Source: Pseudomonadota bacterium
GTDB lineage: Bacteria > Pseudomonadota > Gammaproteobacteria > Pseudomonadales > Pseudohongiellaceae
Length of the DNA: 51,456 nucleotides
Direction: 5' to 3'
Assembly: GCA_051747985.1 (NCBI GenBank)
Contig: JBNJGU010000001.1
Span: forward strand, 1 to 51,456
Translations under genes and position numbers: made by a program
The notes under the pieces: model-generated
What the model saw: only the letters and a program-made list of their open reading frames with translations
Told to the model about the DNA's origin: nothing
Database searches by the model: none
Shown: piece after piece, positions 3,758-51,456 of the stretch
How the letters are laid out: every line of letters begins with the position of its first letter
How positions within the stretch are numbered: the stretch's first letter is position 1

Positions 3758-3808
3758 CGTGATGGAATACTCATGCTGCGGGGGTCGGCGGCATTGTAGC
3801 AGACTGCA

Positions 3809-3817: not shown

Positions 3818-3849
3818 GCGCTTTTGCGACAGGCAAGGAACAAAGCGGA

Positions 3850-5646: not shown

Positions 5647-5730
5647 TGTGGCGTATCCCGTCAGTGAAGCGTGCCCGTCTGTGTAACAGTAGCGCATTTC
5701 GGTACTCTTTACAGCCGTCCCCTTACTACC

Positions 5731-14532: not shown

Positions 14533-14596
14533 GTCGACCCGGCAGTCAGGAGACCCGCCCCGCCGTGGCCGTCCGCGCCACCAGGGATGATTCGCA

Positions 14597-15877
14597 GTGA
14601 ACCGACGCTTCTACAATATCGCCTTCTATCTGATCATGCCGCTGATCCTGCTGCGGCTGCTGTGGATGTCCGTACAGCAGCCGGCCTACGCGCGACGCTG
14701 GACCGAACGCTTCGGTTTTGTCAGTCGCACACTGGCCGCGCGCAGCGAACAGCAATGGATCTGGGTGCATGCCGTCTCGGTGGGCGAGACCATGGCCGCC
14801 GAACCGCTGATCCGCCGTCTGCGGGCCCGTCATCCCGAATACGGTATTCTGGTCACCACCATGACGCCCACCGGGTCCGAGCGGGTGCGTGAACTGTTCG
14901 GCGAGGAAGTCTGTCACGTCTACGCCCCCTATGACTACAGTGGCGCCGTCAGGCGCTTCCTGAACCGGGTCAGGCCGCGACTGGTGATCCTGATGGAAAC
15001 CGAACTGTGGCCCAACCTGGTCTACTACACCAAGCGCAGCGGTGCTGAGATCATCGTGGCCAATGCACGTCTGTCAGAGCGCTCGGCCCGTGGCTACGAC
15101 AAGTTCGCCAGGCTGGGAAAGCCCATGCTGCAGCAGATCGACTGCATCATCGCACAGGCGGACAGCGATGCCGCGCGTTTCCGTCGCCTGGGCGTGGACC
15201 CCTCGCGCCTGCATGTCACCGGTAGCCTCAAGGTGGAAGTCAGCCTGCCGGCGGAAGAGGACCTGCGACGTCGTGCCGCCCGGTTCCAGAGGATGGTGGA
15301 GGGCAGGCGTCCCACCTGGATTGCGGCCAGTACCCGTGATGGCGAGGAGGAGAAGGTGCTGGATGCCCTGCGCCTGGTGCAGCGGGAGATCCCCGATGTG
15401 CTGCTGGTACTGGTGCCCCGCCATCCTGAACGCTTCGACAGTGTGGCCCGGCTCTGTCAGAAGAGCCGTTTCCGGACGGTGCGGCGCAGCAGCAATCAGC
15501 TGATCGATGCCGTCACTTCGGTGTTTCTCGGTGACAGCATGGGCGAGATGATCGCCTACTATGGCATGGCGGACATCGCCTTCGTCGGCGGCAGTCTGGT
15601 GGATACCGGGTGTCAGAATGTGCTGGAGCCAGCAGCTCTGGGCCTGCCCATTATCACCGGTCCGTCCCAGTACAACTTCCAGACCATCTGCGACCAGCTT
15701 CAGGATGGTGGCGCCCTGCAGCAGGTGCCCCATGAAAAGGCCCTGGCGGACGCGGTGATGGCACTGTTCCGGGATCAGCGGCGTCGCCATGTGATGGGCG
15801 AGGCCGGTATGCGGGTGATCCGACAGAACCGCGGGGCGCTGGATCGTGTGCATGAGGTGGTCAAAGCGTATCTGTAA
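14597..15877 (+). CDS. waaA: 3-deoxy-D-manno-octulosonic acid (Kdo) transferase
   Basis: 426 aa. Typical WaaA/KdtA N-terminus (YNIAFYLIMPLILLRLLW, WVHAVSVGE, ETELWPN) and a GT-B C-terminal half. Confidence 0.95.
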   Translation: MNRRFYNIAFYLIMPLILLRLLWMSVQQPAYARRWTERFGFVSRTLAARSEQQWIWVHAVSVGETMAAEPLIRRLRARHPEYGILVTTMTPTGSERVRELFGEEVCHVYAPYDYSGAVRRFLNRVRPRLVILMETELWPNLVYYTKRSGAEIIVANARLSERSARGYDKFARLGKPMLQQIDCIIAQADSDAARFRRLGVDPSRLHVTGSLKVEVSLPAEEDLRRRAARFQRMVEGRRPTWIAASTRDGEEEKVLDALRLVQREIPDVLLVLVPRHPERFDSVARLCQKSRFRTVRRSSNQLIDAVTSVFLGDSMGEMIAYYGMADIAFVGGSLVDTGCQNVLEPAALGLPIITGPSQYNFQTICDQLQDGGALQQVPHEKALADAVMALFRDQRRRHVMGEAGMRVIRQNRGALDRVHEVVKAYL

Positions 15878-16062
15878 AAAACGGCCATTTACAGACCATC
15901 CTGAAAGACTACGGCACATCTCCCGGTTATCCAAAATACGGGAGGTGCCCTGAAGGCAGGGAGTTGCATTTTTTATTCTTGCATATCAAGATGCTATAGG
16001 GGGGGCAAAGGAAAATCAGGGTGCCGGTATCCCGGTAAGTGCAGTTGCTGCTGCATGGTCAT

Positions 16063-16092
16063 CTGTTACAGCGGATTTCATTACTGTCACAG
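16063..16092 (+). promoter_or_regulatory. Two CTGTnACAG palindromes 21 nt apart in the receptor leader; potential SD-occluding hairpin or operator pair
   Basis: CTGTTACAG (16063-16071) and CTGTCACAG (16084-16092). As RNA they can pair 8 of 9 bp, and the second copy overlaps the AGGAGA Shine-Dalgarno at 16091-16096. Confidence 0.25.
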
Positions 16093-16104
16093 GAGATCAG
16101 AACA

Positions 16105-22227: not shown

Positions 22228-23088
22228 TTGGACGGTGGAGTAGTGGCTAACAATTGGAGCAGGCTGGAGGTCGAGGCGACTGTCGAAGATTACTTCGACA
22301 TGCTCCGCCTGGAGCTGACAAGGCGTCCTTGCAATAAAACCAAACACCGCCGCGCATTACGAGCCAGGTTGAACCAGCGATCGGATGGATCGGTTGAGTT
22401 GAAACACCAGAATATCAGCGCTGTGCTGATCAAGCTCGGCATACCTTACGTTCAAGGGTACAAGCCGCGGTTCAACTACCAACACCTGCTGTTGGAAGTG
22501 GTGGCCGATTATATTGCGGCCCACCCGGAGCTTCGTGATCTGTTCCGCGCAGATGCTGATTCAGTGCCTCCCGTGCCAACCGTTGAGGACTTCCTGGCAG
22601 CAATGGTGGAGCCGCCGCGAACCGAACCCCAAGCGCCACTCTCCATTGCAGAGCCCGCTGCCGTCTACGTACCAGGTGGCAAGGATTACCTGGAAATCGA
22701 GGCGCGAAATCAGTGGTTAGGTGATGCGGGAGAATGCTTCATCATCAATTTCGAGCGCGCCAGATTGATCCATGCAGGACAGGATGCTCTGGCTGACCGC
22801 ATCGAACAGGTTTCCGTGACAGAGGGACCTGCGGCCGGGTTTGATATCCGGTCCTTCGAGGAGGATGGCTCTGATCGTTTCATTGAAGCCAAGACAACCA
22901 AGTACGGAAAGCATACACCATTTTTCGTCACGCCGAATGAGCTGCGATTTTCAGAGCGTCACGCTAGACGGTACTATCTGTATAGGCTCTTCAGCTTTCG
23001 TGCTGATCCGCGGTTGTTTGCGTTACAGGGCGAGCTGCAAACGAATTTCCAGCTGACACCGTCGGAGTACGTGGCCAAGTTTCAGTGA
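22228..23088 (+). CDS. DUF3883-type (PD-(D/E)xK-like nuclease fold) domain protein with a conserved N-terminal helical head
   Basis: The C-terminus GDAGECFIINFERARL...GFDIRSFEEDGSDRFIEAKTT...FFVTPNELRFS...YYLYRLF matches the DUF3883 pattern (E/D...D...E-x-K). The N-terminus (WSRLEVEATVEDYFDML...RSDGSVELKHQNISAVL...GYKPRFNYQ) is a recurrent head domain in such proteins. The start is uncertain: TTG 22228 or GTG 22243, with no ATG available. Composition is visibly more AT-rich than the neighbouring genes. Confidence 0.6.
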   Translation: MDGGVVANNWSRLEVEATVEDYFDMLRLELTRRPCNKTKHRRALRARLNQRSDGSVELKHQNISAVLIKLGIPYVQGYKPRFNYQHLLLEVVADYIAAHPELRDLFRADADSVPPVPTVEDFLAAMVEPPRTEPQAPLSIAEPAAVYVPGGKDYLEIEARNQWLGDAGECFIINFERARLIHAGQDALADRIEQVSVTEGPAAGFDIRSFEEDGSDRFIEAKTTKYGKHTPFFVTPNELRFSERHARRYYLYRLFSFRADPRLFALQGELQTNFQLTPSEYVAKFQ

Positions 23089-23110: not shown

Positions 23111-23401
23111 TCATCCTGACACGGCATCCATGCGCAGCTTTTCCGCCTGATTGATCCAGACCAGCTCGACGCTGTCATCGTTTTTATGGACCACCATCGC
23201 CGTCAGTTGCTGGTTGGAAAACGTGTCGTGTGCGATGAATTCCACCGACGCGGTGACCACGCCGTGGACAGGAAGCCTGTCGATCGGGCCGGTGATCACC
23301 ATGCCTTCCACGTCAATGGTGGTGGCCCGGTACCAGCCCAGAGGGTGTGTTCCCTGCCACAGTGAGACAGGCAGTCCAGGTATAGCGCGTTCGTTGTTCA
23401 T
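23111..23401 (-). CDS. Small PilZ-like domain protein (degenerate c-di-GMP motifs)
   Basis: 96 aa from ATG 23401, preceded by GGAGGAGG. The TIDVEGMVITG block resembles the PilZ DxSxxG region, but the RxxxR motif is absent. This is a weak call. Confidence 0.35.
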   Translation of the reverse strand: MNNERAIPGLPVSLWQGTHPLGWYRATTIDVEGMVITGPIDRLPVHGVVTASVEFIAHDTFSNQQLTAMVVHKNDDSVELVWINQAEKLRMDAVSG

Positions 23402-23669
23402 TGTGCGCGCCTCCTCCACACTGTGCGCAAGTACCAACCTGCTGCACAGTTGGGAAATTGATCGTCAGGACAGGAGATCATAAGGCGATACCCGGAAGAT
23501 GTATGTGCGATACCGAGCAAACCAACATTCCGTCTTGACGCAGGCCATGGAGGCAGCCGGGGCCGAGCGCTACCGCCTCCGGAATATTGGACTTCCTTTC
23601 CGGTGCACTTTAGTCTAATGAATCTGATAGTGTTCCATACCAACCTGAAGTTCCAGAGAGGTGCGTGTC

Positions 23670-34487: not shown

Positions 34488-35531
34488 TCAGCGGCGGGAC
34501 TCCTGCACCCGCGCTCCCAGCAGGATGCTCGGCAACGAGCGGTTACCCTCATGACAGGCGAATTCGAAGATCCGGTCTTCCGGGCTGTTGCGTATCAGCA
34601 TGCGTTCGCCCACCACGGGAGCCGTGAAGGCCACGGGATCCGTGGCGGTGAATACGTAATGGATGGCATTGTCATCGACGAGCGTGAAACGCTCCACCAC
34701 CTCGAACTGTTCCGAAATACCGACACCCCGGGTAAAGGTCTGTTCCGGGCGGAAATCGCGAGTATGCACGACCAGGGTGTCACCTTCCCAGTAGCCGACG
34801 GAGTCCCCCATCCATTCGGGGATGCCGTTGTTGCGGTGCTCATCATCAAGACGGATTATGCGCGCGTCATGCGCCATCTCGGTCATGATCATGACATGAT
34901 CGTGATTCTGGACGATCTGCATGTTGGCGTTCATCATGATCGGTGTCATTGACGGTATCGCGGAACCAAATGCCAGGCAGCGACCACTCAGTGGCTGACC
35001 TTCCGGGCCGTCGGTAGTGCCGAGGCCGGCGGCCCGTTGCCGGGCATTGTGGTCCTGGAAATTCGCCCGCACCGGTACCCGTCCATCCGGCGGGTCGATG
35101 ATGATCGACGTCCTGTATTCACCGCCCACTTTCGGCAGTTTCGCGTCCTGCCAGTGCGCCAGAAACTCGTCGTCGGCTTCCATTCCGATGCGTGCTCCCC
35201 GCTCTGGTGGACCCCGGTCTGGATCACGGGGGGCATCCAGCATCCGGTTGCGCTCCAGCATCCGGTTCTCGACGGCCGCCACCTCGTCCGTTGTATAGGT
35301 TTTCTTCAGTCCCAGGTTGGCCGGTCGCTGCAGTGGCGTGCGTGAACCGAAAAACCAGGTGCCCTGCAGGTCGGGCTGACCGTATCCGGTTCTGGGCATG
35401 ACCCAGTCCGCCGACGGTATCTGTGCGACGGGCGTTGATGGCCCGCTTTCCAGTTGTGCGTGGCTCATCAAGGGAACCAGGGTGCTCAACAAGGACAGCC
35501 ACAACGTGTTCTTCGGCATCGATCTTTTCAT
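34488..35531 (-). CDS. Secreted conserved hypothetical protein
   Basis: Start at ATG 35531 (MKRSMPKNTLWLSLLSTLVPLMSHAQ). Codon usage is coding-like throughout. The PDLQGTW... N-terminal block recalls uncharacterised periplasmic proteins of proteobacteria. Function unknown. Confidence 0.55.
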   Translation of the reverse strand: MKRSMPKNTLWLSLLSTLVPLMSHAQLESGPSTPVAQIPSADWVMPRTGYGQPDLQGTWFFGSRTPLQRPANLGLKKTYTTDEVAAVENRMLERNRMLDAPRDPDRGPPERGARIGMEADDEFLAHWQDAKLPKVGGEYRTSIIIDPPDGRVPVRANFQDHNARQRAAGLGTTDGPEGQPLSGRCLAFGSAIPSMTPIMMNANMQIVQNHDHVMIMTEMAHDARIIRLDDEHRNNGIPEWMGDSVGYWEGDTLVVHTRDFRPEQTFTRGVGISEQFEVVERFTLVDDNAIHYVFTATDPVAFTAPVVGERMLIRNSPEDRIFEFACHEGNRSLPSILLGARVQESRR

Positions 35532-35642
35532 GGTCTGCAAGCCTGTCTCTGAAAGGATGATATTGACAGTATAGATGGCCCGGCTGAATTACGGATGGGG
35601 CGGATTGTCGCAGCAGTGTGTCGGTGCGGGTCGGAGGTCGGG

Positions 35643-36674
35643 TCAGCCGCGGGCATGTTTCTCGATGGCTGACACCACGAAACCGGATAGGTCCCGCTTG
35701 TCCGAAAGATACTGGTCCAGTCGCTTTCGGTGCGCCTCGCGTCCCATGTACAGCTCGAAGCCGTAGATGACAGCGTCGACGGCACCCGGTTGACTGGCAT
35801 CGACCCAGTGCAGCAGACCCGCGTTCTGCAACTCTGTCACATAGCCCAGTCGGTCCAGGCCAGCACAGACACCCGGCACGCCCAGTATGGCCGACTCGGC
35901 GGCCATGGTCGGGCTGTCTCCGATGACGAGGTCGCAATGCGCCATCAGGTGGTGCATGTCCGCGAGCCGCCCCTGATACTGCATGGGGCGAAGGTCCTCC
36001 GGCAACTCACGCTCACTGCTGATGATGACATGTCCCCTCCGGGACAGGCGATTTACAAGCCGGTGGAGTTGTTCATCCGACAGGCCGGATTTGCCCACAT
36101 CATGATTGGCATTCCACGATACCACCCGGACAAGAAAGTTCTCGTGCGCAGGATCCAGTCCGGCAGCAAGCGCCGTTTCACGTGATGGCTTGAACGTATC
36201 CGGATGCAGGTAGGACAGGTGTTTTGTTCCGGGAAACCGCATTGTCTTGCCGGCCGGTACAGGGGCGTTGTAACTCTCCGGGACGTAGAGGTGATTGATG
36301 AATGGCCAGGTCAGCCGGATCTGCAGTGTGGCTGTTTCATGATCGTAGAAGCTGACGCTGGGGACACCCAGCAGGCGACCGACATGTGAGATGGCCACGC
36401 CCCCGTACCCCACCATCACATCCGGTCGAAAGCGACGACACTCGTGGAATACCCGCATGTCGCGCAGCAACAGTTCCGTGGCCAGTGGCCCCAGACCGGC
36501 CCCGGCACGGGAGACCGGGCGGTGGGGCAGCCCGAACTCATTGAGCAGTTCACAGACGATGTCCTTGTGGCGCGACAGGATCAGCACCTCTGCTCCCCGC
36601 TGCTGCAGTATGCGGATGGGGTTCAGAAAGAACTGGGCATGGGCCGGGTGTACGATATCGAAGAGTACGCGCAT
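35643..36674 (-). CDS. DUF354 family protein (GT-B / UDP-GlcNAc-2-epimerase-like fold)
   Basis: N-terminus MRVLFDIVHPAHAQFFLNPIRILQQRGAEVLILSRHKDIVCELLNEFG matches the characteristic DUF354 opening. Its ATG overlaps the stop of the upstream GT-C gene by 1 nt (TGATG). Confidence 0.7.
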   Translation of the reverse strand: MRVLFDIVHPAHAQFFLNPIRILQQRGAEVLILSRHKDIVCELLNEFGLPHRPVSRAGAGLGPLATELLLRDMRVFHECRRFRPDVMVGYGGVAISHVGRLLGVPSVSFYDHETATLQIRLTWPFINHLYVPESYNAPVPAGKTMRFPGTKHLSYLHPDTFKPSRETALAAGLDPAHENFLVRVVSWNANHDVGKSGLSDEQLHRLVNRLSRRGHVIISSERELPEDLRPMQYQGRLADMHHLMAHCDLVIGDSPTMAAESAILGVPGVCAGLDRLGYVTELQNAGLLHWVDASQPGAVDAVIYGFELYMGREAHRKRLDQYLSDKRDLSGFVVSAIEKHARG

Positions 36675-38323
36675 CAGAATCCGTGATAGAGGGGTTGTTC
36701 CGGGGGCGGGTGATCAGGCGCGACACCGGCCGCGTTCCATATCAAGCGGGTTGTCGTCCCCGGCTCTCCAACAAACCGGTTCCCGCCCCGCTGCAACATG
36801 ATCGTCTCGCCACTTTCATGGAGAATGCCGTTGATCTGCACCGGGTTATCTGTCTCAATCCGGTAATCTCCCGCGATCCGCACCGGATGGCGTTGCCCGT
36901 CGGACGGTGAGGATGGTGGGAAAGTGATCTGGAAACCGGCGATGTGAATGGCTCCCCAGTATGGAACATAGGCCTGGCGCAGCACCTCGACGTCCTCGTC
37001 CAGTAACCATTGTTGTTGGTTATCTGTGAATACCGCCTGGAGGGCCGGCCCGTTGGCCAGCAGCAGTGGTGGTCTCTGTGATGCCAACAGGTCATCCATT
37101 ACCGGTTCGCCCCGATCCAGGTATTGACTCAGTCCCCAGCCGGTCATGAAAAAACCCTGCTTGGGAAAGGAGCTGACCATACTGTTGCGGTCAATATAAG
37201 CAACCGGTTCGTTGAAAATGTCATGCACGGCAGCCAGGGTCTGCCGCTGTGTGACCTGGCCCTTGGGAAGTCCGCGGGTGGTCTGCATCACGGCGCTGGT
37301 CAGCATCAGCACGCAGATCACAAGGAAAACCGGTCGTGACCAGCGGTACAGGGTATGGGCCCCGATGGCCAGAGTGATCATCGCTGGTGCGGTGATGAAC
37401 GGATAGAAATAGGCAAAGGAATTGCGATAAAAAAGTACCGAGAGCAGGGGAGCGGCGAAAAGCAGTGCAACGGTTCCCCTCGTACTGCCCACAATCAGCA
37501 ACACCACAGCGCTGAAGCTCAGCACCAGCCAGATCAGGAACGTGATCGCCTGCGGCAGCAGGCCGGCCTCGAGTAACATGGAGCGTCCCGCGCGCCCGGC
37601 GAAAGCGGTATTACCGGATGCCGCGTCGGCAGGATCAATTCCCAGAGAAAATCCATGCAGCAGATACAGCGCTACGAAACAGACCGCAGCGGAGAGTGTG
37701 CCGCTCAGCACGTGTACCACCAGTCGGGGCTGCCCGTGCTGGCGCGTGTGCCACAGAAGCACCCCGAGAAAGGCTGGAAGATACAACACGGCCTTGATCG
37801 TGACCAATCCGGCCAGACCCACCAGACCGCCAGCGATCGCCGCCCGTTTTGTTGTCATCGAAGGAGTCAGGGTCAGTGCGATCGCCCCCATCAGTAATGA
37901 GGTGGCGAGTGGGTCAGTGCGGAAACTGAATCCCTGTGTGAGTGTAAAACCGGTCGCCAACCATGCCAGCGCCGCGAACAACGCGACGGGCGTGGGGACA
38001 AAGCGACGGGAAGCCACCACCAGGCTCACCAGGGTCAGCAACTGGGCCACAAACATGCCCCAGCGTCCGGCGATCACCTGTTGTATTTCATTACCGGGAA
38101 TCCGGGTCACCCAACCAAACAGGTGAACATGAATTGTCCTCAGCGGGCTGTCCAGTGTCCCCCTCTGCGCGTCATGGATCAGGGACAGGAAATAGAATTC
38201 ATCCCAGTTGATGTTGTGGTGCAGAATAAAGACGATTTGCAACCCCAGCAGCAAAATGAATCCGACGGACAGGGCTGCCAGGTCCGGCCGTCGCAGGCCG
38301 TCAACTCGCCATGCCCCGTTCAT
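36674..38323 (-). CDS. Polytopic GT-C-fold glycosyltransferase candidate (ArnT/PMT/GT39-83-like) with a periplasmic C-terminal domain
   Basis: 549 aa. About 11 hydrophobic helices, a WDEFYF acidic motif right after TM1, and a soluble C-terminal region of about 170 aa. Its ATG overlaps the GT2 stop (4-nt overlap). Confidence 0.55.
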   Translation of the reverse strand: MNGAWRVDGLRRPDLAALSVGFILLLGLQIVFILHHNINWDEFYFLSLIHDAQRGTLDSPLRTIHVHLFGWVTRIPGNEIQQVIAGRWGMFVAQLLTLVSLVVASRRFVPTPVALFAALAWLATGFTLTQGFSFRTDPLATSLLMGAIALTLTPSMTTKRAAIAGGLVGLAGLVTIKAVLYLPAFLGVLLWHTRQHGQPRLVVHVLSGTLSAAVCFVALYLLHGFSLGIDPADAASGNTAFAGRAGRSMLLEAGLLPQAITFLIWLVLSFSAVVLLIVGSTRGTVALLFAAPLLSVLFYRNSFAYFYPFITAPAMITLAIGAHTLYRWSRPVFLVICVLMLTSAVMQTTRGLPKGQVTQRQTLAAVHDIFNEPVAYIDRNSMVSSFPKQGFFMTGWGLSQYLDRGEPVMDDLLASQRPPLLLANGPALQAVFTDNQQQWLLDEDVEVLRQAYVPYWGAIHIAGFQITFPPSSPSDGQRHPVRIAGDYRIETDNPVQINGILHESGETIMLQRGGNRFVGEPGTTTRLIWNAAGVAPDHPPPEQPLYHGF

Positions 38324-39282
38324 GCGCTATGCTTCCGGTCCCGGCTGATGCGCTGCTGTCGCAATTGCCGTGCGCGGATGTCCTGCAGTATGTCGCGATT
38401 GGCGGAGACCAGGTCGGCCAGCAGGCCGGAAGCGAACAGAATCACCGCGATGGCCAGCAGGGCGCCGGACAGGACCAGTGACTGCACATGGCCGCTTCCC
38501 TCACCCTGAGAGTAGAACCACAGGAAACGGGCGATGCCCAATACGCCAGGGGTTCCGATCACCAAGGACACCCAACTGAAAAACGCCAGCGGGCGATAGA
38601 TCACGAACATGCGCAGTATGGTGCCGGCTGAACGGAATACATACTGGCGCATGGAGCGGAACAGCCGGGACGGACGTGTCACCGGGTTCACCCGGACGGG
38701 CACCGAGGCCATGGGGATATTGCGCCGCCCGGCCTGGATGATGGTTTCCAGTGTGTAGCTGTAGGAGTTGATGACATAGAGCCGCGCCGCCGCGTCGCGG
38801 TGATAGGCACGGAAGCCACTGGGAGCATCCGGTATCCGGGTGCCGGATGCCTTTCGTACCACCCAGCTACCCAGGCGTTGCAGTAGCTTCTTGGTGAAAG
38901 AGAAGCTTTCGATCTCCGAGATTGGCCTTTCGCCCACCACGATCATGGCGTCTCCGGCAAGAATCGGTGCCACCAGTGCCGGGATGTCGGCGCCATTGTA
39001 CTGATTGTCGGCGTCCGTATTCACCACGACGTCGGCGCCCAGGGCAAGGGCCTTTTCCAACCCGGCCATGAATGCACGTGCCAGCCCCATGTTGCAACCC
39101 AGTACCAGCACATGGTCCGCTCCGGCCGCTTTGGCCGTGCGTACCGTGTCGTCACTGGAGCCATCATCGATCACCAGCACTTCCACGGTATCAAAGCCGG
39201 GCACCTGGCGCGGGATGGCGGCCAGCGTCTCCGGCAGCGTCTCGGCTTCGTTGAGGCAGGGAATCTGGATGATCAGCTTCAT
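38320..39282 (-). CDS. GT2 polyprenol-phosphate glycosyltransferase (GtrB/ArnC/Dpm1-like)
   Basis: IQIPCLNEAETL, VLVIDDGSSDDT and NTDADNQY (DxD) form the GT2 catalytic domain. Two C-terminal TM helices follow, as is typical of GtrB/ArnC-type enzymes. Confidence 0.85.
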   Translation of the reverse strand: MKLIIQIPCLNEAETLPETLAAIPRQVPGFDTVEVLVIDDGSSDDTVRTAKAAGADHVLVLGCNMGLARAFMAGLEKALALGADVVVNTDADNQYNGADIPALVAPILAGDAMIVVGERPISEIESFSFTKKLLQRLGSWVVRKASGTRIPDAPSGFRAYHRDAAARLYVINSYSYTLETIIQAGRRNIPMASVPVRVNPVTRPSRLFRSMRQYVFRSAGTILRMFVIYRPLAFFSWVSLVIGTPGVLGIARFLWFYSQGEGSGHVQSLVLSGALLAIAVILFASGLLADLVSANRDILQDIRARQLRQQRISRDRKHSA

Positions 39283-39456
39283 GGATGACTCGGATGCGTT
39301 TCCGGGCGCCGTGGGCCATACGCGGCGTGCCAGCCGCCAAAGATACCAGATTTACGCAATTATGAAAGTCGGCCGGCGACACAGGCCTGCATACCTTATC
39401 CCGCTTTTCAGTCTTCGAGACTGGCGAAACAGGGAATTCGGTTCTATAACCTGAGT

Positions 39457-39473
39457 ACAGGACAGTGTCCTGT
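39457..39473 (+). promoter_or_regulatory. Perfect 7-3-7 inverted repeat (ACAGGAC-AGT-GTCCTGT), candidate operator upstream of the small peptide gene
   Basis: Lies 37 nt upstream of ATG 39510 and just downstream of a TATAAC -10-like hexamer (39444-39449), in the divergent GT2/peptide intergenic region. Confidence 0.3.
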
Positions 39474-39509
39474 GATTGATGAAAACCACCAGGGACAGGA
39501 GGAAATACG

Positions 39510-39686
39510 ATGAGAGAGCTTACGGCTCGAGAGATGGATATGGTGAGCGGTGCCGGGTATCTGCCGCAGGCCGGTGCGATTGCGGTGACGTACAAGACGG
39601 CCTACGAGACCGCCACCTGGTTTGGCGCGGACCAGCTGGGTAGCGCCATCGGCAATGCATTGTACGATTTCACGCACGGTAGCTGA
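39510..39686 (+). CDS. 58-aa double-glycine-leader peptide, class II microcin/bacteriocin-like precursor (absent from the ORF track, which appears to list only ORFs of 60 aa or longer)
   Basis: ATG 39510 to TGA 39684-39686, with AGGAGGA (39497-39503) 6 nt upstream. Product: MRELTAREMDMVSGAGYLPQAGAIAVTYKTAYETATWFGADQLGSAIGNALYDFTHGS. Residues 1-16 fit the MRELxxxE(L/M)xxVSG(G/A) double-glycine leader. The core is Gly/Ala-rich and Cys-free. Confidence 0.6.
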   Translation: MRELTAREMDMVSGAGYLPQAGAIAVTYKTAYETATWFGADQLGSAIGNALYDFTHGS

Positions 39687-39692
39687 TGTACC

Positions 39693-39725
39693 GGGCAGGG
39701 CACCGGTGCGCCGGTAGCTCTGCCC
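39693..39725 (+). promoter_or_regulatory. Stem-loop between the peptide gene and the downstream membrane-protein gene (possible attenuator or processing site)
   Basis: GGGCAG...ACCGG-TGCG-CCGGT...CTGCCC is a nested GC-rich hairpin starting 7 nt after the peptide stop. No T-tract follows, so it is not a canonical terminator. Confidence 0.3.
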
Positions 39726-39747
39726 ACCATTTCCGGGGGACAGGATC

Positions 39748-40035
39748 ATGAATCACACAACTGGAAAGCGTATGTCCTCGGTGTTGGCCATTCTTTCCCT
39801 GCTATGCCTGGTGGCGGTAGTGGCAATGGTACGGCATGTTCTGGAGGCGAACTGGCTGGATGCGCTGTTCGCGGCCGGTGGGCTGGTTCTGTTGCTGCCC
39901 ACGCGGGCCACGGTCAGCTGGATGGCTGCCGACGCTGTCGGTAGCTCGCTTAGGCCTCAGCCATGGCAGCAATGGGTGGGTGTGTCCTGCATAGCAGTGG
40001 CGCTGACCGCGGGGATGGTATTGGAGTTGTTATGA
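39748..40035 (+). CDS. Small 3-TM membrane protein, candidate immunity protein for the upstream peptide
   Basis: 95 aa with three hydrophobic segments (VLAILSLLCLVAVVAMV, LFAAGGLVLLLP, WVGVSCIAVALTAGMVL). It lies 62 nt downstream of the peptide gene on the same strand. An alternative start is at 39772. Confidence 0.5.
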   Translation: MNHTTGKRMSSVLAILSLLCLVAVVAMVRHVLEANWLDALFAAGGLVLLLPTRATVSWMAADAVGSSLRPQPWQQWVGVSCIAVALTAGMVLELL

Positions 40036-40244
40036 AGCCAGCGCTTGTGGTTGGTCCATGGTGACGGCCTGATTCGCGTATACGAGATATCGTACGAGGC
40101 TGGAGCGTCCCACAGGTATCTCGTCGGAATCATTGATCCTCGTCATGGTTCTGCCTTTTTCCCATTGCCAACACGAGGTAAAGGAACATACTGTTCAGTA
40201 CAGTAATGGCGCATCATCGTATTGGGTGAGGGAGGAGCTGACAC

Positions 40245-40748
40245 ATGAAGCCGATCAAGGGGAAAGTGCTCGCGCTGACAGCGGCCGTGACGCTGACCGC
40301 ATGTTCCGGAGAACCCGAATCCGCCGGGGAGGCGGTCCGATTGCCGATCAGCATCAACGAGGTCATGGTGGCCCTGGTGAATCATGCGGCGGACCCGATC
40401 TGGCGTGCGGACTGGGATCAGCCGGAAACCGATGCCGAATGGCGGGAGGTCGAACGTCTGGCCTATCAGGTCCAGGTGGGCGGTACGCTGATCCAGTTTC
40501 CAGGCACCGGTCCCATGGATGACGAATGGGTGGCCGATCCGGCCTGGAACCGTTACGCGCAGCAGTTGAGCGAAGCCGGCCGGCATGCTGTCAATTCAGC
40601 GCGCTCACAGGACCAGACGCTGATCCGCCGGGCCGGAGACGAGCTGGTGGAGGCCTGCGAGGCCTGCGACATCGCCTTCAAGCCGGATCTGCCGACCATG
40701 GACATGTTCGGGGAGTTGTCTCCGCTTCCCCCTGTTTCTGTGCAGTAG
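40245..40748 (+). CDS. Lipoprotein of unknown function, possibly a cytochrome c'-like four-helix protein lacking the heme His
   Basis: Lipobox LTAC after a basic N-terminus and a GGAGGAG RBS. The C-terminal-proximal CEACD sits where class II cytochromes c carry CxxCH. The fold assignment is speculative. Confidence 0.5.
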   Translation: MKPIKGKVLALTAAVTLTACSGEPESAGEAVRLPISINEVMVALVNHAADPIWRADWDQPETDAEWREVERLAYQVQVGGTLIQFPGTGPMDDEWVADPAWNRYAQQLSEAGRHAVNSARSQDQTLIRRAGDELVEACEACDIAFKPDLPTMDMFGELSPLPPVSVQ

Positions 40749-42410: not shown

Positions 42411-44036
42411 ATGACGGATACCAACTTGCGCTACCGACCCGATATCCGGCTACTCCTGACCCTGGCGGCCTTTGTCGGCCTGTTTCTGGCGCTGACCCTG
42501 CCCAATCGCCTTGCCTGGATCACGCCGCCAGCCTTCATTTTCTTTCCACTGGAACTCATGGTCATCGGGCTTCTGCTATTGGCGCCCGGGCGTATTGGTG
42601 ACGCTCTCCGTATCTTTCTGGCCCTGTTGCTCGGGCTTGGACTGCTACTGCGTGGCGCAGACCTGGTGACGCATGAGATTTTCGCACGACCCTTCAACGT
42701 GATCTTCGACAGCCATCTGCTGGCTGATGGCAGTCGTCTGTTGACCGGCGTGCTGGGCGGTCTCGCCGCTTTCGGTGTTGCACTTTTGCTGGCGGTGGCC
42801 GCGGGTCTGCTGGGCTGGCTGGCCTTCGCCATGTTGGGTCGTATTCAGGTGGTCCTGCGGGCGACGTCGCGTCTGTCAGCCATGGCCATGGTGGTGTTGC
42901 TGTTGGCCTGGGTGGGACTGAAGACCGCTGGCTGGTCGAGGGCCGATACCTACGCCTGGGACCAGCTCGTACTGCACGGCCAGGATACACTCCACAGTAT
43001 CCGCGATATCAGGAGCTTTGCCGAGACGGTCAATGAGGATGTATGGGCCGGCCGCTCTGGTGAAGGGCTTTTCGACCGGTTGCGGGGTAAGGATGTATTC
43101 GTCATCTTCGCCGAATCCTACGGACGGGTTCTCCTGGAGCGTGAGCCGTTTGCCGAGTCGGTGACGGCGACACTGACACGGGCGCAGCAGCAGCTCGAGG
43201 CGGATGGCGTGCACATGCGCAGTGCCTTCCTCACCGCGCCGACGGTCGGTGGGCTGAGCTGGCTGGCTCATGCCTCGGCCCTGTCCGGTGCCTGGATTGA
43301 CAGCGAGACCCGCTACGAGAGCCTGATCATCAGCGAGCGTGTCACGCTGAACCGCCTGTTCCGTGATGCCGGGTGGCGCACCGTGGCCGCCATGCCGGCG
43401 ATCAGCATGGCCTGGCCCGAGGGGCAGTACTATGGCTATGATCACATCTATGATGCCCACAATTTCGGCTACGAGGGCCTGCCTTTCAACTGGGTGACCA
43501 TGCCGGATCAGTATGTGTTGTCCGCCCTGGAGGAGCGGGAGCGCAGCCGCACCGACCGCCCGCCGCTGATGGCCGAGATCGCCCTGATTTCCTCCCATGC
43601 CCCCTGGACCCCGATCGCCGAGCTGGTGCCCTGGGAGCAGGTGGGTGACGGACGTATTTTCAACGAACAGGCACGGTCCGGTCCGGCTCCCGAAGAGGTC
43701 TGGCAGGAGGTGGAGTCGATCCGCTCCCACTATCGCCAGTCCATCGAGTATATGCTCCGTACCATGGTGTCCTACGTGCAGGAATACGGTGACGAGGACA
43801 CGGTCATTCTGCTGCTGGGCGATCATCCGCCGGCGCCGTTGGTGTCGGGTGACACGGATGGCAGGGACGTGCCGGTACACCTGATCGCGCGCGATCCCGC
43901 TGTCATGGATGCCGTGGCCGACTGGGGCTGGCAGCCGGGGCTGTTGCCCGACGCCGATGCCCCGGTGTGGCGCATGGACCGCCTGCGTGACCGTTTTGTG
44001 GAAGCATTTTCCGGGGAGCAGAGGGGGAGCGAATGA
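42411..44036 (+). CDS. Membrane-anchored alkaline-phosphatase-superfamily transferase (LtaS/sulfatase-like, phosphoglycerol/phosphoethanolamine-transferase type)
   Basis: Five N-terminal TM helices followed by a periplasmic sulfatase-like domain (VFVIFAESYGR, APTVGGLSW, ALISSHAPW, LLLGDHPP). Confidence 0.7.
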   Translation: MTDTNLRYRPDIRLLLTLAAFVGLFLALTLPNRLAWITPPAFIFFPLELMVIGLLLLAPGRIGDALRIFLALLLGLGLLLRGADLVTHEIFARPFNVIFDSHLLADGSRLLTGVLGGLAAFGVALLLAVAAGLLGWLAFAMLGRIQVVLRATSRLSAMAMVVLLLAWVGLKTAGWSRADTYAWDQLVLHGQDTLHSIRDIRSFAETVNEDVWAGRSGEGLFDRLRGKDVFVIFAESYGRVLLEREPFAESVTATLTRAQQQLEADGVHMRSAFLTAPTVGGLSWLAHASALSGAWIDSETRYESLIISERVTLNRLFRDAGWRTVAAMPAISMAWPEGQYYGYDHIYDAHNFGYEGLPFNWVTMPDQYVLSALEERERSRTDRPPLMAEIALISSHAPWTPIAELVPWEQVGDGRIFNEQARSGPAPEEVWQEVESIRSHYRQSIEYMLRTMVSYVQEYGDEDTVILLLGDHPPAPLVSGDTDGRDVPVHLIARDPAVMDAVADWGWQPGLLPDADAPVWRMDRLRDRFVEAFSGEQRGSE

Positions 44037-44782
44037 TGCCGCGCACTGGCTGGAGGGAGCGATGGGGGCTATGGCGGTCGTTATTGATGTATTACGGCAT
44101 CCCCGGCCGTCAGGCCCGGATGCGCCGCTTCTACGGGCAGTTCATCCGGCCCGGCGACCTGTGTTTCGACATCGGCGCGCATGTCGGCAACCGGCTGTCG
44201 GTCTGGCGGGCGCTGGGAGCCCGCTCGGTGGCCGTGGAACCGCAGCCACTGCTGATGGAGACACTGAGGCGACGCTATGGCAACGATCCGGGCATCACGC
44301 TGGTGGAGGAGGCCATCGGTGCCGGGCCTGGCGAGGCCACGTTACATATCAGCACCCGCACGCCCACCGTCACCACGATGTCGCGCGAGTGGATTTCCCG
44401 TGTACAGCAGGATCCTTCCTTCCGGGGCGTGCAGTGGGACCGGGAGGTGACGGTTCCGGTGACCACGCTGGATGAGTTGATCGAGCGTTGTGGCGAGCCG
44501 CGTTTCTGCAAGATCGATGTCGAAGGGTTCGAACTGGACGTGCTGCGGGGACTGTCGCGTCCACTGGCGGCGCTGTCCTTCGAGTACATTCCAGCGACCA
44601 TGGGGTTCGCGGTGGACTGTATCCGGCGGCTGGAAGAGCTGGGCGGTTATGAATACAACCTGGCACCTGGAGAGACGCATCGTCTGCAGTCGTCGCGCTG
44701 GCGATCGCCGGAGCAGATGATGGAAGCGCTGCAACGGATCACGCAGGGCAGTGGTGATGTCTATGCCCGGCGTGTGAGCTGA
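44033..44782 (+). CDS. FkbM-family SAM-dependent methyltransferase
   Basis: CFDIGAHVGN, SVAVEPQP and KIDVEGFELDVLRG are canonical FkbM blocks. Its ATG overlaps the stop of the upstream transferase (ATGA). Confidence 0.85.
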   Translation: MMPRTGWRERWGLWRSLLMYYGIPGRQARMRRFYGQFIRPGDLCFDIGAHVGNRLSVWRALGARSVAVEPQPLLMETLRRRYGNDPGITLVEEAIGAGPGEATLHISTRTPTVTTMSREWISRVQQDPSFRGVQWDREVTVPVTTLDELIERCGEPRFCKIDVEGFELDVLRGLSRPLAALSFEYIPATMGFAVDCIRRLEELGGYEYNLAPGETHRLQSSRWRSPEQMMEALQRITQGSGDVYARRVS

Positions 44783-44807
44783 CCCCTTCAGCCATGGCCA
44801 GGAACGC

Positions 44808-45137
44808 ATGATACATATCGCCCTTCACTTCATCGTTCCGATGCTGACCGCCCTGGCGTTCTATCGTGGGCGCTGGCATCAGGCCGCCGGTGTCATGGTG
44901 GCCACCATGGTGGTGGACGTGGATCATCTGTTGGCGGATCCGGTCTATGACCCCGAGCGGTGCTCCATCGGTTTTCATCCGCTGCACACGGCGCCGGCCA
45001 TGGCTCTTTACGTGGGGTTGCTCGTGGTTCCCCTGCTGGTCGGGAGCGATCGAACCGGGTGGCGGGTATTGCACTGGATCGGTGTCGGGCTGGTGATCCA
45101 CATGGCACTGGATGGCGCGGATTGCCTGCCTTTCTGA
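44808..45137 (+). CDS. Small His-rich 3-TM membrane protein (DUF6122-like)
   Basis: 109 aa (MIHIALHFIVPML..., VDVDHLLADPVYDP, GFHPLHT). It lies 25 nt after the FkbM gene. The family assignment is from memory only. Confidence 0.45.
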   Translation: MIHIALHFIVPMLTALAFYRGRWHQAAGVMVATMVVDVDHLLADPVYDPERCSIGFHPLHTAPAMALYVGLLVVPLLVGSDRTGWRVLHWIGVGLVIHMALDGADCLPF

Positions 45138-45150
45138 CCAGGATGCCGGG

Positions 45151-45978
45151 TCAGTGAGCTTTTGTGTCTGGTTCCGGCAGCGCGAGAATATCCGTGTGTC
45201 CCACAATGCAGGTACCGGTTGCCGCATTCGATTGACGGAATCGGACCCAGTCCTTCAGAGAGCTCGCATCGAGACGTGAATCCGGCTCCACGGCACCGGC
45301 GATTCCCTCTATCAGTGCATCCACCATGGCCTGATCGGTTCCGTCCAGATTCCAGGGACTGCTGGCGGTACGAACCGTGAATCCGGCGTGGGTGAAGATC
45401 TGCTCCATGCGGGCTCCGGCATCCGGGCCCAGTGCCGGGCCGAATCCCTTGTCCCGGCGTTGGTCCTTGTTGAAGGCGTCGAGAACCAGGTCATCCAGTG
45501 GATGGGCGGGGCTCCATCGGGTCATGCCGTCGTAGTTGAGCGCGGCGTACACGCCGGTGGATGATCGGGAGTCACCGGCTTTCAGTGTGCTGGCCAGGGT
45601 TTCGAGGAAGTTGGCGGACACCAGGTCAAACAGCGCCGAGGCGGTCACCAGTCGGGCGCCCGCCAGTGGCAGGTCGGTGACCCGTGCCAGATCCGTCGGA
45701 CAGGCCTCGATCCGATGCCGCTGGCCGTGACGGCGTTGTGCCTCGGCCAGCAGTTCCCGGTCGTGATCCACCAGGCGCCAGCTCAAAGGTGTCGCGTGGC
45801 TATGGTCCGCGGTCAATGCGCGCAATGTGGAGCCGGTGCCGGCGCCCAGATCGACCACAATGGCTCCGGTACCCGGACCGGCCAGCCATTGCCGTGCCTG
45901 TTCCAGCAGGGCACCGTCCCGGGCACGTCGGTCAGCGTCCTCGCGCAGGTCCAGCCAGTCGATACTGAATCCACTCAT
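45151..45978 (-). CDS. Class I SAM-dependent methyltransferase
   Basis: SAM motif I VVDLGAGTGS, then an acidic residue (LVDHD) at motif II. Its ATG overlaps the stop of the upstream GT4 gene by 4 nt. Confidence 0.75.
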   Translation of the reverse strand: MSGFSIDWLDLREDADRRARDGALLEQARQWLAGPGTGAIVVDLGAGTGSTLRALTADHSHATPLSWRLVDHDRELLAEAQRRHGQRHRIEACPTDLARVTDLPLAGARLVTASALFDLVSANFLETLASTLKAGDSRSSTGVYAALNYDGMTRWSPAHPLDDLVLDAFNKDQRRDKGFGPALGPDAGARMEQIFTHAGFTVRTASSPWNLDGTDQAMVDALIEGIAGAVEPDSRLDASSLKDWVRFRQSNAATGTCIVGHTDILALPEPDTKAH

Positions 45979-47072
45979 GTCTGTCGTACCTCGTCAATAA
46001 GCTGCGCAACCCGACGGGCGCTGTCGCTCCAGGTGGGCAGAGTGGCTGCCGCGCGGCGGGCCCCGGCCTGCAACTCCCGGCGCAGTGATTCCCTCGTCAG
46101 AAGACTGCGGATAGCCTCGCCCAATGCCTTCGGATCATCCGGCGGCACCAGCAGACCGGCGGTGTCCGGCACCACGTCCGGCACGGCACCGGCGCGGGCC
46201 GCGATCACCGGCAGCCCGGCAGCCAGGGCTTCGGCGAACACCATGCCATAGCCCTCGAATCGTGATGGGAGCACAAACAGGTCGGCCTGTCGGTATTCGG
46301 TCTGCAGGTCATCCACGGCTCCGACCAAGCGTATACGGTCCTGCAACCGGGCACGGTTCACCCGGTCCTGTAATGCAGCGGCCCAGGCCGGGTCGAAACC
46401 GGTTCCGCCCACGAATCGTGCCTGCCAGGGCAGGTGGGGCACCAGGGCAAGTGCATCAATCAGTACATCGTGGGCCTTGCGCCGGGTCAGGGAAGCCACA
46501 GTCAGCAGTTGTGGCGGGGCACCGTCACAGGGAGAGAAGGGAACCCGTTCAGTGCCGGGTCTGGCCACCACGATACAGTCCATGGGCACACCGTATTCCG
46601 CGGTCAGGATCCGCGCGGTGTGGTCGCTGGTGACCACCACGGCCCGGGTAAATTGCAGTGCGCGTTGCTCCGAGGCCCGAAACGCCCGCTGTTGCGAAGC
46701 GTCCAGTCCCGATTCCAGTGCCAGCGGATGGTGGCACAGAGCGATCAGCCGAAGGCGTCGTGCCTCGGCTTCTGCCACGTCATCCAGCACACCGAGCGCG
46801 AGGCCGTCGATCATCACGATGGCGTCGTCCGGCAGCGTCGCCAGGGTTTTCCGGGCGCCCCGCCGGGCGGATTCATCGGGAAAAGGAAAGCCTTCGGGTA
46901 GCGCAGTGGGCTGCACGTCCAGACCCACTTCACGCATTCCATCGATCAGGCGGCGATCGTAGTGATAGCCGCCGGTTGGCGTGTCGAGGCGGCCGGGATA
47001 GGCGAAATACAGGGTTGTAGCGTTCACAGGTGATCTGATCCGTTCCGGAGAGGCTGCCGTATTCAATGGCAT
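45975..47072 (-). CDS. Glycosyltransferase family 4 (GT-B, retaining, RfaG-like)
   Basis: The C-terminal EX7E region (FVLPSRFEGYGMVFAEALAAGLPVIA) is typical of GT4 enzymes. Confidence 0.85.
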   Translation of the reverse strand: MPLNTAASPERIRSPVNATTLYFAYPGRLDTPTGGYHYDRRLIDGMREVGLDVQPTALPEGFPFPDESARRGARKTLATLPDDAIVMIDGLALGVLDDVAEAEARRLRLIALCHHPLALESGLDASQQRAFRASEQRALQFTRAVVVTSDHTARILTAEYGVPMDCIVVARPGTERVPFSPCDGAPPQLLTVASLTRRKAHDVLIDALALVPHLPWQARFVGGTGFDPAWAAALQDRVNRARLQDRIRLVGAVDDLQTEYRQADLFVLPSRFEGYGMVFAEALAAGLPVIAARAGAVPDVVPDTAGLLVPPDDPKALGEAIRSLLTRESLRRELQAGARRAAATLPTWSDSARRVAQLIDEVRQT

Positions 47073-49949: not shown

Positions 49950-50807
49950 TCAGTCCGGGTTCTCTGATTCCAGTCGGGCCGCAATACGTTCTGCCTCTTC
50001 CTCCTTCGCGGCCTCGATGACCGCCATCAGGTCCACAAGATCGGCACTGGCGGTGGGATGTTCGTAGCGCCCGGTCAGGGTGCTGTCCGGTTGCAGTTCG
50101 CCGCTCTCGTACAACGACCAGATTTCCCTGGCGTAATCGGTCTCCAGCAGTTTCGGGTCGAAGCGGGCAAACCAGCGACGCATGTTGTCGACATCCCGCT
50201 CCAGCATCCTTCCGGCGCTGTTGTTGCCGGCCGCATTGACCGCCTGCGGCAGGTCGATGATGACCGGTCCTTCAGGATCCACCAGTACATTGAACGGTGA
50301 CAGGTCGCCGTGGACCAGCCCCGCGCACAGCATGCGCACGATCTCGGTGATGATGCGTCCGTGATAGTCCCGGGCGCGCTCGGGGTCCAGCGCGATCTGT
50401 CCCAATTGCGGCGCCACATCACCCTGCTCATCAGTGATCAGTTCCATCAGCAGAACGCCGTCCACGAAAGACAGCGGCTCGGGCACCCGTACTCCGGCCG
50501 CGGCGAGCAGGCGCAGTGCCTCGACTTCAGCGTTGAGCCAGGCCTGCTCCTGTTCCTTCTGCCCATAGCGGGTCTTGCGGTTCATGGCCCGGTTGCGACG
50601 GGTGTTGCGACCGCCACGGCCTTCCTGGTATTGCACGGCCTGCTTGAAACTGCGCTGCGAGCTCTCCTTGAAGACCTTGGCGCAGCGCCGCTCATCGCCG
50701 CAGCGCACGATATAGACCTGGGCCTCCTTGCCGCTCATCAGGTGACCGATGACCTCGTCGATCAGACCATCATCAATGAGGGGTTGCAGGCGTTTGGGCA
50801 CTTTCAT
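49950..50807 (-). CDS. RIO-type (RIO1-like) atypical serine protein kinase
   Basis: Start at ATG 50807 (MKVPKRLQPL...). SGKEAQVY, CAKVFK (Lys), RLLAAAGVRVPEP, LVHGDLSPFNVLV (catalytic loop) and IIDLPQAV (metal-binding D) are hallmarks of RIO kinases. Confidence 0.8.
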   Translation of the reverse strand: MKVPKRLQPLIDDGLIDEVIGHLMSGKEAQVYIVRCGDERRCAKVFKESSQRSFKQAVQYQEGRGGRNTRRNRAMNRKTRYGQKEQEQAWLNAEVEALRLLAAAGVRVPEPLSFVDGVLLMELITDEQGDVAPQLGQIALDPERARDYHGRIITEIVRMLCAGLVHGDLSPFNVLVDPEGPVIIDLPQAVNAAGNNSAGRMLERDVDNMRRWFARFDPKLLETDYAREIWSLYESGELQPDSTLTGRYEHPTASADLVDLMAVIEAAKEEEAERIAARLESENPD

Positions 50808-50991
50808 GAACAGCGGGTCTCTGGTGGTTGGATGTCCCGCGATTCTCTCATTGTGACGCCTGTTTCGCCAGTTCTCACGGGTAGCGCTCCAGGGTTTTTT
50901 ATATGTCTGTATGTGCGATGGCGCACACGCGGAGAGCCCATCCGCGCGTAGACTGTCTGCATGCAGATGCGCAATTGAGGATTCCGGCACC

Positions 50992-51456
50992 ATGAAAACA
51001 ATACAGGCTTCCTGTCCCGATACGGTTCAGCAGCCGGAACAGAACCACCTGTTGGGCTCATTGGGTGCGGAGAGCATGGCCCGCCTGCGTGGTCATCTGA
51101 AGCTCATCCATCTGCCGTTGGGAAAAGTGATCTACGAGCCGGGCGTGAAAATGCAACATGTGTATTTCCCGACCGATTCCATCATTTCGTTGCTGTACGT
51201 CATGCACGACGGCGCGTCCGCCGAGATTTCCGTGGTCGGTAATGAGGGCGTGCTAGGAGTGTCCGTGTTCATGGGGGGCGAAAGCACGCCAAGCCGGGCC
51301 GTGGTGCAAAGCGCGGGAGAGGCGTACAGCCTGCCGCGCCAGATACTCAAGACCGAGTTCAACCGCCACGGTGAACTGATGGAATTGATGTTGCATTACA
51401 CCCAGGCGTTGATCACCCAGATGGCACAGACTGCTGTCTGCAACCGACATCACAGT
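50992..51456 (+). CDS. Crp/Fnr-family transcriptional regulator (3' end outside the window)
   Basis: Not in the track because no stop falls inside the window. ATG 50992 is in frame to the last base. Product MKTIQASCPDTVQQPEQNHLLGSLGAESMARLRGHLKLIHLPLGKVIYEPGVKMQHVYFPTDSIISLLYVMHDGASAEISVVGNEGVLGVSVFMGG... shows the cNMP-binding beta-roll pattern. Confidence 0.75.
   Translation, partial: MKTIQASCPDTVQQPEQNHLLGSLGAESMARLRGHLKLIHLPLGKVIYEPGVKMQHVYFPTDSIISLLYVMHDGASAEISVVGNEGVLGVSVFMGGESTPSRAVVQSAGEAYSLPRQILKTEFNRHGELMELMLHYTQALITQMAQTAVCNRHHS

Follow-up and report, generated by a model that had tools for sequence, protein, structure and literature searches.

A candidate class IIa microcin-like peptide and its putative immunity protein, encoded without a linked exporter on a gammaproteobacterial contig

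The DNA analysed here (the window) is the entire 51,456-bp contig JBNJGU010000001.1 of a fragmented Pseudomonadota assembly (GCA_051747985.1), and it carries a compact two-gene cassette made of an open reading frame (ORF) whose product starts with a double-glycine (GG) leader and, on the same strand, a gene for a small membrane protein (Table 1). A previous sequence-only reading had pointed to the first ORF as one left out of the gene track; its start, stop, 58-aa product and Shine-Dalgarno sequence were reproduced exactly, and the ORF is indeed absent as a called gene from the stored annotation of the contig. Both genes are real and under selection. Among the ORFs of 25–150 aa in all six frames of the contig, the GG-leader regular expression fits the peptide ORF only, and the GC content at its third codon positions (GC3, 0.73) is like that of genuine genes on this contig. 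Six relatives with 73–95% identity turned up among the 5.8 billion proteins searched, one of them from a metagenome-assembled genome (MAG) of the Pseudohongiellaceae (GCA_040882255.1). Pairwise ratios of nonsynonymous to synonymous substitution (dN/dS, Nei-Gojobori) are 0.03–0.14 for the peptide with dS around 1 or saturated, and for the core peptide dN is 0.01–0.22 against dS values that are again around 1 or saturated, so that the purifying selection in relatives proposed earlier as a check was found. A close relative occurs in one of the 185,579 species genomes scanned, a metagenome scan contributed four loci, three of them new, and sample SRR31818010 has two differing alleles; a tblastn search of plasmids and phages with the peptide gave no match. 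That the ORF is a chance open frame and no gene at all is extremely improbable: it went uncalled in the source annotation and reaches the threshold of no curated family, but its homologues in 39 protein clusters, purifying selection, gene-like GC3, strong Shine-Dalgarno sequence and conserved partner and context speak against chance, which the conservation data had in fact already refuted.

Table 1. Features of the two-gene cassette in the window (forward-strand coordinates)
Feature	Position	Strand	Remarks
Putative sigma-70 promoter	39422..39450	+	-35 TGGCGA 39422-39427, 17-nt spacer, -10 TATAAC 39445-39450; proposed from conservation
Conserved palindrome or stem-loop of the 5' untranslated region	39456..39474	+	UACAGGAC-AGU-GUCCUGUG; begins at about the predicted +1
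Shine-Dalgarno sequence AGGAGGA	39497-39503	+	6 nt 5' of the peptide ATG; GGAGG invariant in six loci
Peptide ORF	ATG 39510 to TGA 39686	+	58 aa, product MRELTAREMDMVSGAGYLPQAGAIAVTYKTAYETATWFGADQLGSAIGNALYDFTHGS
Double-glycine (GG/GA) leader, 15 codons	39510..39554	+	MRELTAREMDMVSGA
Predicted core peptide, 43 aa (GYLPQ...FTHGS), and stop codon	39555..39686	+	4498.9 Da, net charge about -2, no Cys
Intercistronic GC-rich stem-loop	39693..39725	+	Directly 3' of the peptide stop; no U-tract
Shine-Dalgarno sequence GGGGGA	39735..39740	+	7 nt 5' of the ATG of the second gene; read from the sequence
Gene for 95-aa protein with three hydrophobic helices, candidate cognate immunity protein	39748..40035	+	61-nt spacer after the peptide gene

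The peptide belongs to an uncurated family of 'YKTAYETAT' GG-leader peptides, which we delimited by our own alignments. When 1.84 billion cluster representatives were searched exhaustively with an HMMER profile, 16 matches emerged, down to E = 2e-21, and a second profile search brought the family to 39 protein clusters. Nearly all members are 54–100 aa long, start with a GG leader and share one core motif, AVTYKTAYETATWFGAD.LG..IG..LYD, which the peptide has in common with 38 other clusters. The family consensus core AVTYKTAYETAT[WF][FY]GA[DG].[LF]G..[IL]G...Y and the GG leader are both present in the window peptide. No curated model reaches its threshold with the peptide. Pfam PF17508 (microcin V, MccV) aligns residues 1–55 of the peptide with positions 1–55 of a 104-position profile at 20.1 bits (E = 9.4e-4), below its gathering threshold of 27; at this sub-threshold level it matches eight relatives as well, nine of the 21 family members in all, with a best E of 9e-4. 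NCBIfam TIGR03949 (lactobin A/cerein 7B) weakly matches seven of the 21 (best E 1e-5), without any match to the window peptide at E <= 0.1; the Pfam family Bacteriocin_IIc matches two, and TIGR01847 (bacteriocin-type signal sequence) one relative, at E = 0.014, with no match to the window peptide at E <= 10. The search with hidden Markov models of leaders and Pfam bacteriocin models, proposed earlier as a check, thus gave the peptide matches below threshold only, that to MccV among them. A match to the lantibiotic model TIGR03893 (E = 0.021) was rejected as weak and driven by the leader. The family member from Shewanella gaetbuli (P0024 in our numbering of proteins) is labelled by NCBI as 'class IIb bacteriocin, lactobin A/cerein 7B family'. 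A search of solved structures with the family profile returned nothing at E <= 10, and the literature searched contained neither the core motif nor any link between Pseudohongiella and a bacteriocin locus. One member, P0015 (positions 2775-2981 of locus L019), begins not with a GG leader but with a signal peptide of the Sec type (...TLQAQA/SPLH), which fits an extracytoplasmic site of action; its locus has no gene for the three-helix partner and has a DDE transposase nearby.

The leader satisfies R-x-[IL]-x9-G-[GAS], the published regular expression for class II microcin signals (PMC12219008), and has the GG or GA cleavage motif at its end that the definition of class II microcins (PMC10233263, PMC9746304) requires. 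Its residues M1, R2, L4, T5, E8, S13, G14 and A15 are invariant across the close relatives, in which hydrophobic residues alone occupy position 9, V, I or A stands at position 12, and positions 6, 7, 10 and 11 are free. Leaders of the wider family retain L4, E8, the hydrophobic residue 9, V/I/A at 12, G14 and A/G15, which is the -12/-8/-7/-4/-2/-1 pattern typical of GG leaders. The assignment of the N-terminus to this leader type by the sequence-only reading thus holds well. Its division of the precursor has to be shifted: we take the leader of microcin V to have 15 residues in the identical register (L4, E8, M9, V12, G14-A15), and this register predicts cleavage after Gly14-Ala15, one residue before the cut after G16 that had been proposed. 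Position 16 is G, N or S in relatives, all compatible with a +1 residue. The core described earlier as Cys-free and about 42 aa long is Cys-free as stated, with a predicted length of 43 aa; the precursor has a predicted mass of 6.18 kDa. AlphaFold2 placed a helix at residues 6–12, with a mean confidence (pLDDT) of 60 that is too weak for a fold search. We also considered a class IIb (siderophore) microcin and rejected it, as the terminal ...HGS is invariant only in the close clade, the C-terminus (...YDFTHGS) does not form a tail rich in Gly and Ser, and modification genes are absent; the genes nearby encode glycosyltransferases of the lipopolysaccharide (LPS) type, a lipoprotein and a protein of beta-lactamase fold.

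In the six loci compared, which have unrelated DNA farther upstream, the two blocks of the putative promoter are the best-conserved upstream stretches, with invariant columns T.GCG and GT.CTATAAC, suggesting that 39422-39450 functions as a promoter; its -35 is weak and a simple consensus scan did not call it. The palindrome that follows is present in all six loci having upstream sequence, with fold energies of -5.7 to -10.2 kcal/mol, and may work either at the RNA level, as a 5' hairpin, or as an operator. Substitutions in relatives mostly retain pairing as G.U on the + strand, which favours the RNA stem-loop over a DNA operator. A LexA or lux-box palindrome was discarded, since the half-sites of ACAGG-N7-CCTGT stand in the opposite order to those of the comparison site CTGT-N8-ACAG and the substitutions keep G.U pairs. 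The GC-rich hairpin previously noticed between the two genes could be located precisely (Table 1): the spacer folds at -30.5 kcal/mol (z = -2.2), and 10 of the 11 family loci, AT-rich distant ones of unrelated sequence included, have a stable hairpin right after the peptide stop (z between -2.0 and -6.1), mostly with no U-tract. These spacers were folded one by one; alignment with MAFFT and RNAalifold misplaced the stems. The hairpin is likely a leaky terminator or a transcript stabiliser that would yield more peptide than partner transcript; partial termination between genes occurs in other bacteriocin operons.

The stored call of the second gene (P0047, 87 aa) begins at 39772; the 95-aa version is the better gene model because the N-terminal M-N-x-x-T-G-K-R is kept in relatives. 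Kyte-Doolittle profiles show hydrophobic segments at about residues 12–29, 38–52 and 76–95, in agreement with the three hydrophobic helices reported before, and AlphaFold2 predicts helices at 3–32, 36–49, 53–61 and 72–94 (pLDDT 71). Its dN/dS is 0.1–0.27, with dS of 0.7–2.6 (0.10 against the near-identical locus L003). A three-helix partner gene lies 3' of the peptide in the close-clade loci L001, L003, L004, L005 and L007 and in the outgroup L018, and also in the more distant loci L010-L012/L017, L013, L014 and L015/L016. The 95-aa protein is homologous to the partners of L015 and L018 and to the 90-aa protein of L010 (BLASTP E = 2e-6), with which it has the motif NW..A..A.G....[LM]P[TS][RK]A in common. 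Among the 5.8 billion proteins the partner family comprises nine clusters, eight of which trace to peptide-bearing contigs (P0050 was untraced), and no traced locus has the partner gene without the peptide. Since the partner is homologous across loci and eight of its nine clusters sit on peptide contigs, the peptide and the three-helix protein are an ancestral, co-inherited unit. Published criteria for microcin immunity proteins are adjacency, a length of 51–216 aa and transmembrane helices; the 95-aa protein agrees with them in size, position and helices, and we infer that it confers immunity. It has no Pfam or NCBIfam match above threshold (DUF6524 and SxtJ were considered and rejected as sub-threshold), and a Foldseek search of the PDB with its model gave no match with E < 1.

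The window itself encodes no recognizable means of export for the peptide. Searches by tblastn with the peptidase-containing ABC transporters (PCATs), membrane-fusion proteins (MFPs) and CPBP proteases of the family gave no match in the window, no real ORF of the contig has an ABC signature or Walker A motif, and Pfam scans of about 40 contig ORFs returned no C39, ABC or HlyD domain. These three approaches agree with the earlier statement that the 51 kb lack a C39/PCAT transporter and an HlyD partner. No exporter was within reach in any of the seven close-clade loci (the window, L001/L002 and L003-L007), nor within about 5 kb in the 72%-identical outgroup L018, and the description of the pair as an orphan is consequently true of the contig, of every close relative and of one outgroup. 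A linked C39-peptidase ABC transporter with its MFP is a feature of distant family members: in L009, L010-L012/L017, L013 and L015/L016 both genes lie within 4 kb of the peptide. The cluster of Shewanella gaetbuli (L009) comprises MFP, PCAT, three GG peptides sharing one leader, small membrane proteins and a CPBP/Rce1-like protein; L010-L012/L017 and L013 have MFP, peptide(s), a 90-aa protein, CPBP and a PCAT of 720–725 aa; L015/L016 have MFP, peptide, an 88-aa protein and PCAT; and L014 has peptide, 90-aa protein and CPBP protein before the contig ends. The PCATs of these distant members retain the C39 Cys, His and Asp motifs (QxExxECGLA, HWDxNHFVV and (N/Y)DPAxG) and are thus processing transporters.

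Several observations on these full clusters deserve mention in their own right. They encode several different GG peptides (L009, 9001-12034; L013, 9525-14831), which suggests that they are multi-peptide arsenals. The three GG peptides of L009 have the identical leader MQNSKIEELTFDEIEQVNGG, and the same cluster has a small membrane protein in two copies; L013 has two CPBP genes. In L010, four near-identical 39-codon ORFs (MLDIYAGANALKTIQE.GFKQELFTNFLGA.GGPKW...; 8116-8235, 13571-13690, 14439-14558 and 17445-17564) flank or interrupt the full microcin cluster. They occur also in L011 and L012 and may be a repeat element or gene-fragment copies.

The absence of an exporter within reach in all eight loci of the close clade and outgroup could be read as the sign of a defence remnant, in which the exporter was lost, the 95-aa protein guards against the same peptide made by neighbours and the peptide gene persists as a non-exported passenger. 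In E. coli, orphan immunity genes occur commonly and selection favours them (PMC12546727). We nonetheless consider this unlikely for the present pair, as purifying selection is stronger on the supposed passenger (dN/dS 0.03–0.14) than on its partner (0.1–0.27) at dS of about 1 or more. Moreover, all the leader consensus residues, which are relevant only to C39 recognition, have been kept, the Shine-Dalgarno sequence and promoter are conserved, and the partner gene was never found without the peptide.

Taken together, these data probably reflect a class IIa microcin-like secreted peptide and its cognate immunity protein, uncoupled from their exporter. The cassette would be a two-gene operon for an unmodified, ribosomally made secreted peptide and an inner-membrane immunity protein. 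Transcription would start at the conserved promoter and run through the 5' stem-loop, the 58-aa precursor would be translated from its strong Shine-Dalgarno sequence, and the hairpin behind its stop codon would let part of the transcripts pass into the 95-aa gene. The C39 peptidase domain of a PCAT would then recognize the 15-residue GG/GA leader and cut after Gly14-Ala15, and the PCAT, together with an MFP and an outer-membrane channel, would export the anionic 43-aa peptide, which may act on the inner membrane of related bacteria while the three-helix protein shields the producer. The pair seems to have split from its exporter genes in this lineage and to sit as a movable unit where the chromosome is rearranging; with these genes separated from it, export would have to depend on a PCAT gene located elsewhere. 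That the leader consensus persists and that purifying selection on the peptide is strong speaks for continued processing by a PCAT in these genomes. In this scheme the point of cleavage, the route of export, the antibacterial target, the immunity function and what promoter and hairpins do are all predictions.

Several points weigh against this interpretation. Neither PCAT, MFP nor CPBP protein was found on the contig, within ±10 kb in the Pseudohongiellaceae MAG or within about 5 kb in L018, so that export in this very lineage is a prediction. No curated bacteriocin model reaches its cut-off, and TIGR03949 and TIGR01847 do not match the window peptide; the AlphaFold2 model of the peptide is of low confidence. 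The mature peptide, at a predicted 4.50 kDa, is slightly under the nominal 5–10 kDa of class II microcins, a range that is itself given as approximate. In the Shewanella locus L009 the peptide is followed by an unrelated 86-aa protein, and the actual immunity factor, or a second one, could be the CPBP protein of the full clusters. Finally, conservation is higher in the peptide than in its partner, with no sign of diversifying selection, which is unusual for an arms-race toxin and is the feature least expected under a toxin model. Such very high conservation of the core would suit a conserved interaction partner and thus a secreted GG peptide that does not kill, for instance a signal or a self-assembling biofilm factor, with the 95-aa protein as its receptor, chaperone or processing partner. 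PCATs export pheromones and other GG peptides as well (PMC7018657), and self-assembling microcins that promote biofilm have been reported from Acinetobacter (PMC13188072). We regard a non-killing role as unlikely, given that no sensor kinase or regulator lies in the cassette or is conserved beside it, that the several GG peptides and CPBP-type proteins of the full clusters form the usual layout of a bacteriocin locus, and that the small adjacent transmembrane protein fits the immunity pattern.

The surroundings of the cassette differ at every locus, with neighbours that include Fic, MazEF, HNH, DUF2726, SHOCT, Ada, DinB and a multihaem cytochrome. In the window, it adjoins three genes on the - strand (35643-39282) for a DUF354 glycosyltransferase-like protein, a 549-aa polytopic membrane protein without Pfam match and a GT2 glycosyltransferase. 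The 95%-identical locus L003 lacks all three, and a homologue of window positions 35320-35631 abuts its peptide promoter, amounting to a 3.85-kb indel beside the cassette. A conserved gene of about 95 aa without Pfam match, which in the window lies 16 kb away (23111-23437, - strand) behind a NOV_C/DUF3883 protein gene (22228-23088, + strand), has its homologue 0.3–1.3 kb from the cassette in L001 and L004. On the other side, a 167-aa predicted lipoprotein (...LTACSG) without family match is encoded downstream (40245-40748, + strand), about 290 bp of whose gene are missing from L003. Homology between loci starts at about 39420, that is, at the putative -35, so the moving unit seems to comprise promoter, peptide gene, hairpin and partner gene. 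The sequence-only reading had also described the patch at 39.3–40.2 kb as visibly AT-rich; this is real and modest, with a GC content of 0.577 against a contig mean of 0.627 (fifth percentile of 900-bp windows), and in 39300-40200 it stems mostly from two long intergenic spacers (GC 0.54 and 0.52), both genes having a GC content of 0.60.

Such a position in variable, rearranged regions, in relatives beside MazEF, Fic, HNH, DUF2726 and SHOCT, would also be expected of an internal addiction module resembling toxin-antitoxin systems, whose unprocessed peptide harms the membrane from inside and stabilises the island without any export. We find this very unlikely, because it leaves the conservation of the GG leader unexplained, pre-microcin V is non-toxic in the cytoplasm (PMC12219008), other family members sit in PCAT clusters and plasmids and phages gave no matches. 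In a more novel reading, the Pseudohongiellaceae pair would be a free-standing mobile cargo cassette that moves between chromosomal hotspots and uses a distal PCAT, with a single exporter shared by interchangeable toxin modules. Alternatively it would have taken on an export-independent role, for instance in addiction or as a conserved signal active at the membrane, and such a role would account for the higher conservation of the peptide relative to its partner; we deem this reading as a whole possible, though improbable. The contig as a whole indicates a chromosomal, Gram-negative origin by its LPS-core genes (2813-5295, 14597-15877, 44033-47072 and 49950-50993), which encode a lipid A acyltransferase, an HldE-like kinase/adenylyltransferase, a Kdo transferase, a GT4 glycosyltransferase, an FkbM methyltransferase and a RIO/Kdo-kinase-like protein, and by two TonB-dependent receptors (5671-8250 and 16039-18984). 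It also carries amidohydrolases and riboflavin or pterin biosynthesis genes. The isolate name of the MAG relative, LejiaF, suggests a saline-lake source.

If the pair is, as we favour, a microcin-like toxin with its immunity protein, its closest known counterpart is microcin V (CvaC/Cvi/CvaAB), the archetype of class IIa in the definition that we followed (PMC10233263, PMC9746304). Both have a 15-residue leader in the same register ending in G-A or G-G, an unmodified core with abundant Gly, Ala and aromatic residues, an anionic mature peptide and an adjacent small transmembrane protein within the immunity range of 51–216 aa, and homologues of the window peptide are, like microcin V, encoded with an MFP and a catalytic PCAT. 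They presumably also have in common a stretch ...G.A(L/I)YD(F/Y), which we take to underlie the weak Pfam MccV match. Unlike microcin V, the window peptide falls below the Pfam threshold, shows no detectable homology to the C-terminal half of MccV, is Cys-free and of a predicted 4.5 rather than 5–10 kDa, and has no linked exporter; its locus is chromosomal and belongs to a non-enteric gammaproteobacterium, the closest named relative being the Pseudohongiellaceae MAG, and its 95-aa protein matches no Pfam or NCBIfam family above threshold. The TIGR03949 bacteriocins similarly combine a GG leader with a small Gly/Ala-rich core, but the resemblance lies mainly in leader and composition. That family models two-peptide bacteriocins of Gram-positive bacteria; no second GG-leader ORF that could encode a partner peptide was found on the contig.

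The locus also resembles the class II microcins mined by their signals (cinful; Parker et al. 2025, PMC12219008), being a short and, as often in those, unannotated ORF with the signature Rx[IL]x9G[GAS] next to a transmembrane immunity candidate, although those screens took in Enterobacteriaceae and human gut metagenomes. With orphan bacteriocin toxin/immunity loci (PMC12546727) it shares modules uncoupled from release or export genes and lying in variable DNA. It differs from immunity-only remnants in keeping toxin and immunity candidates both intact and under selection. The novelty that had been ascribed to it was overstated: class II microcins are abundant and diverse far beyond the classic ten (PMC12219008), and PCAT-less matches are on record, with 81.9% of E. 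coli microcin matches having a PCAT in the assembly and about 18% lacking one (PMC9746304).

The locus leaves the current picture of microcin biology unchanged. It adds a well-supported, previously unannotated and uncurated peptide family to the GG-leader bacteriocins of Gram-negative bacteria, in a little-studied lineage, and illustrates how genes of 58 codons slip past gene callers. It also provides a candidate toxin/immunity pair that lends itself to direct tests, with cleavage site and mass both predicted (Table 1). Finally, because the same putative toxin-immunity unit exists both in complete export clusters and as an exporter-less cassette, this family can help in asking how cargo and export evolve separately.

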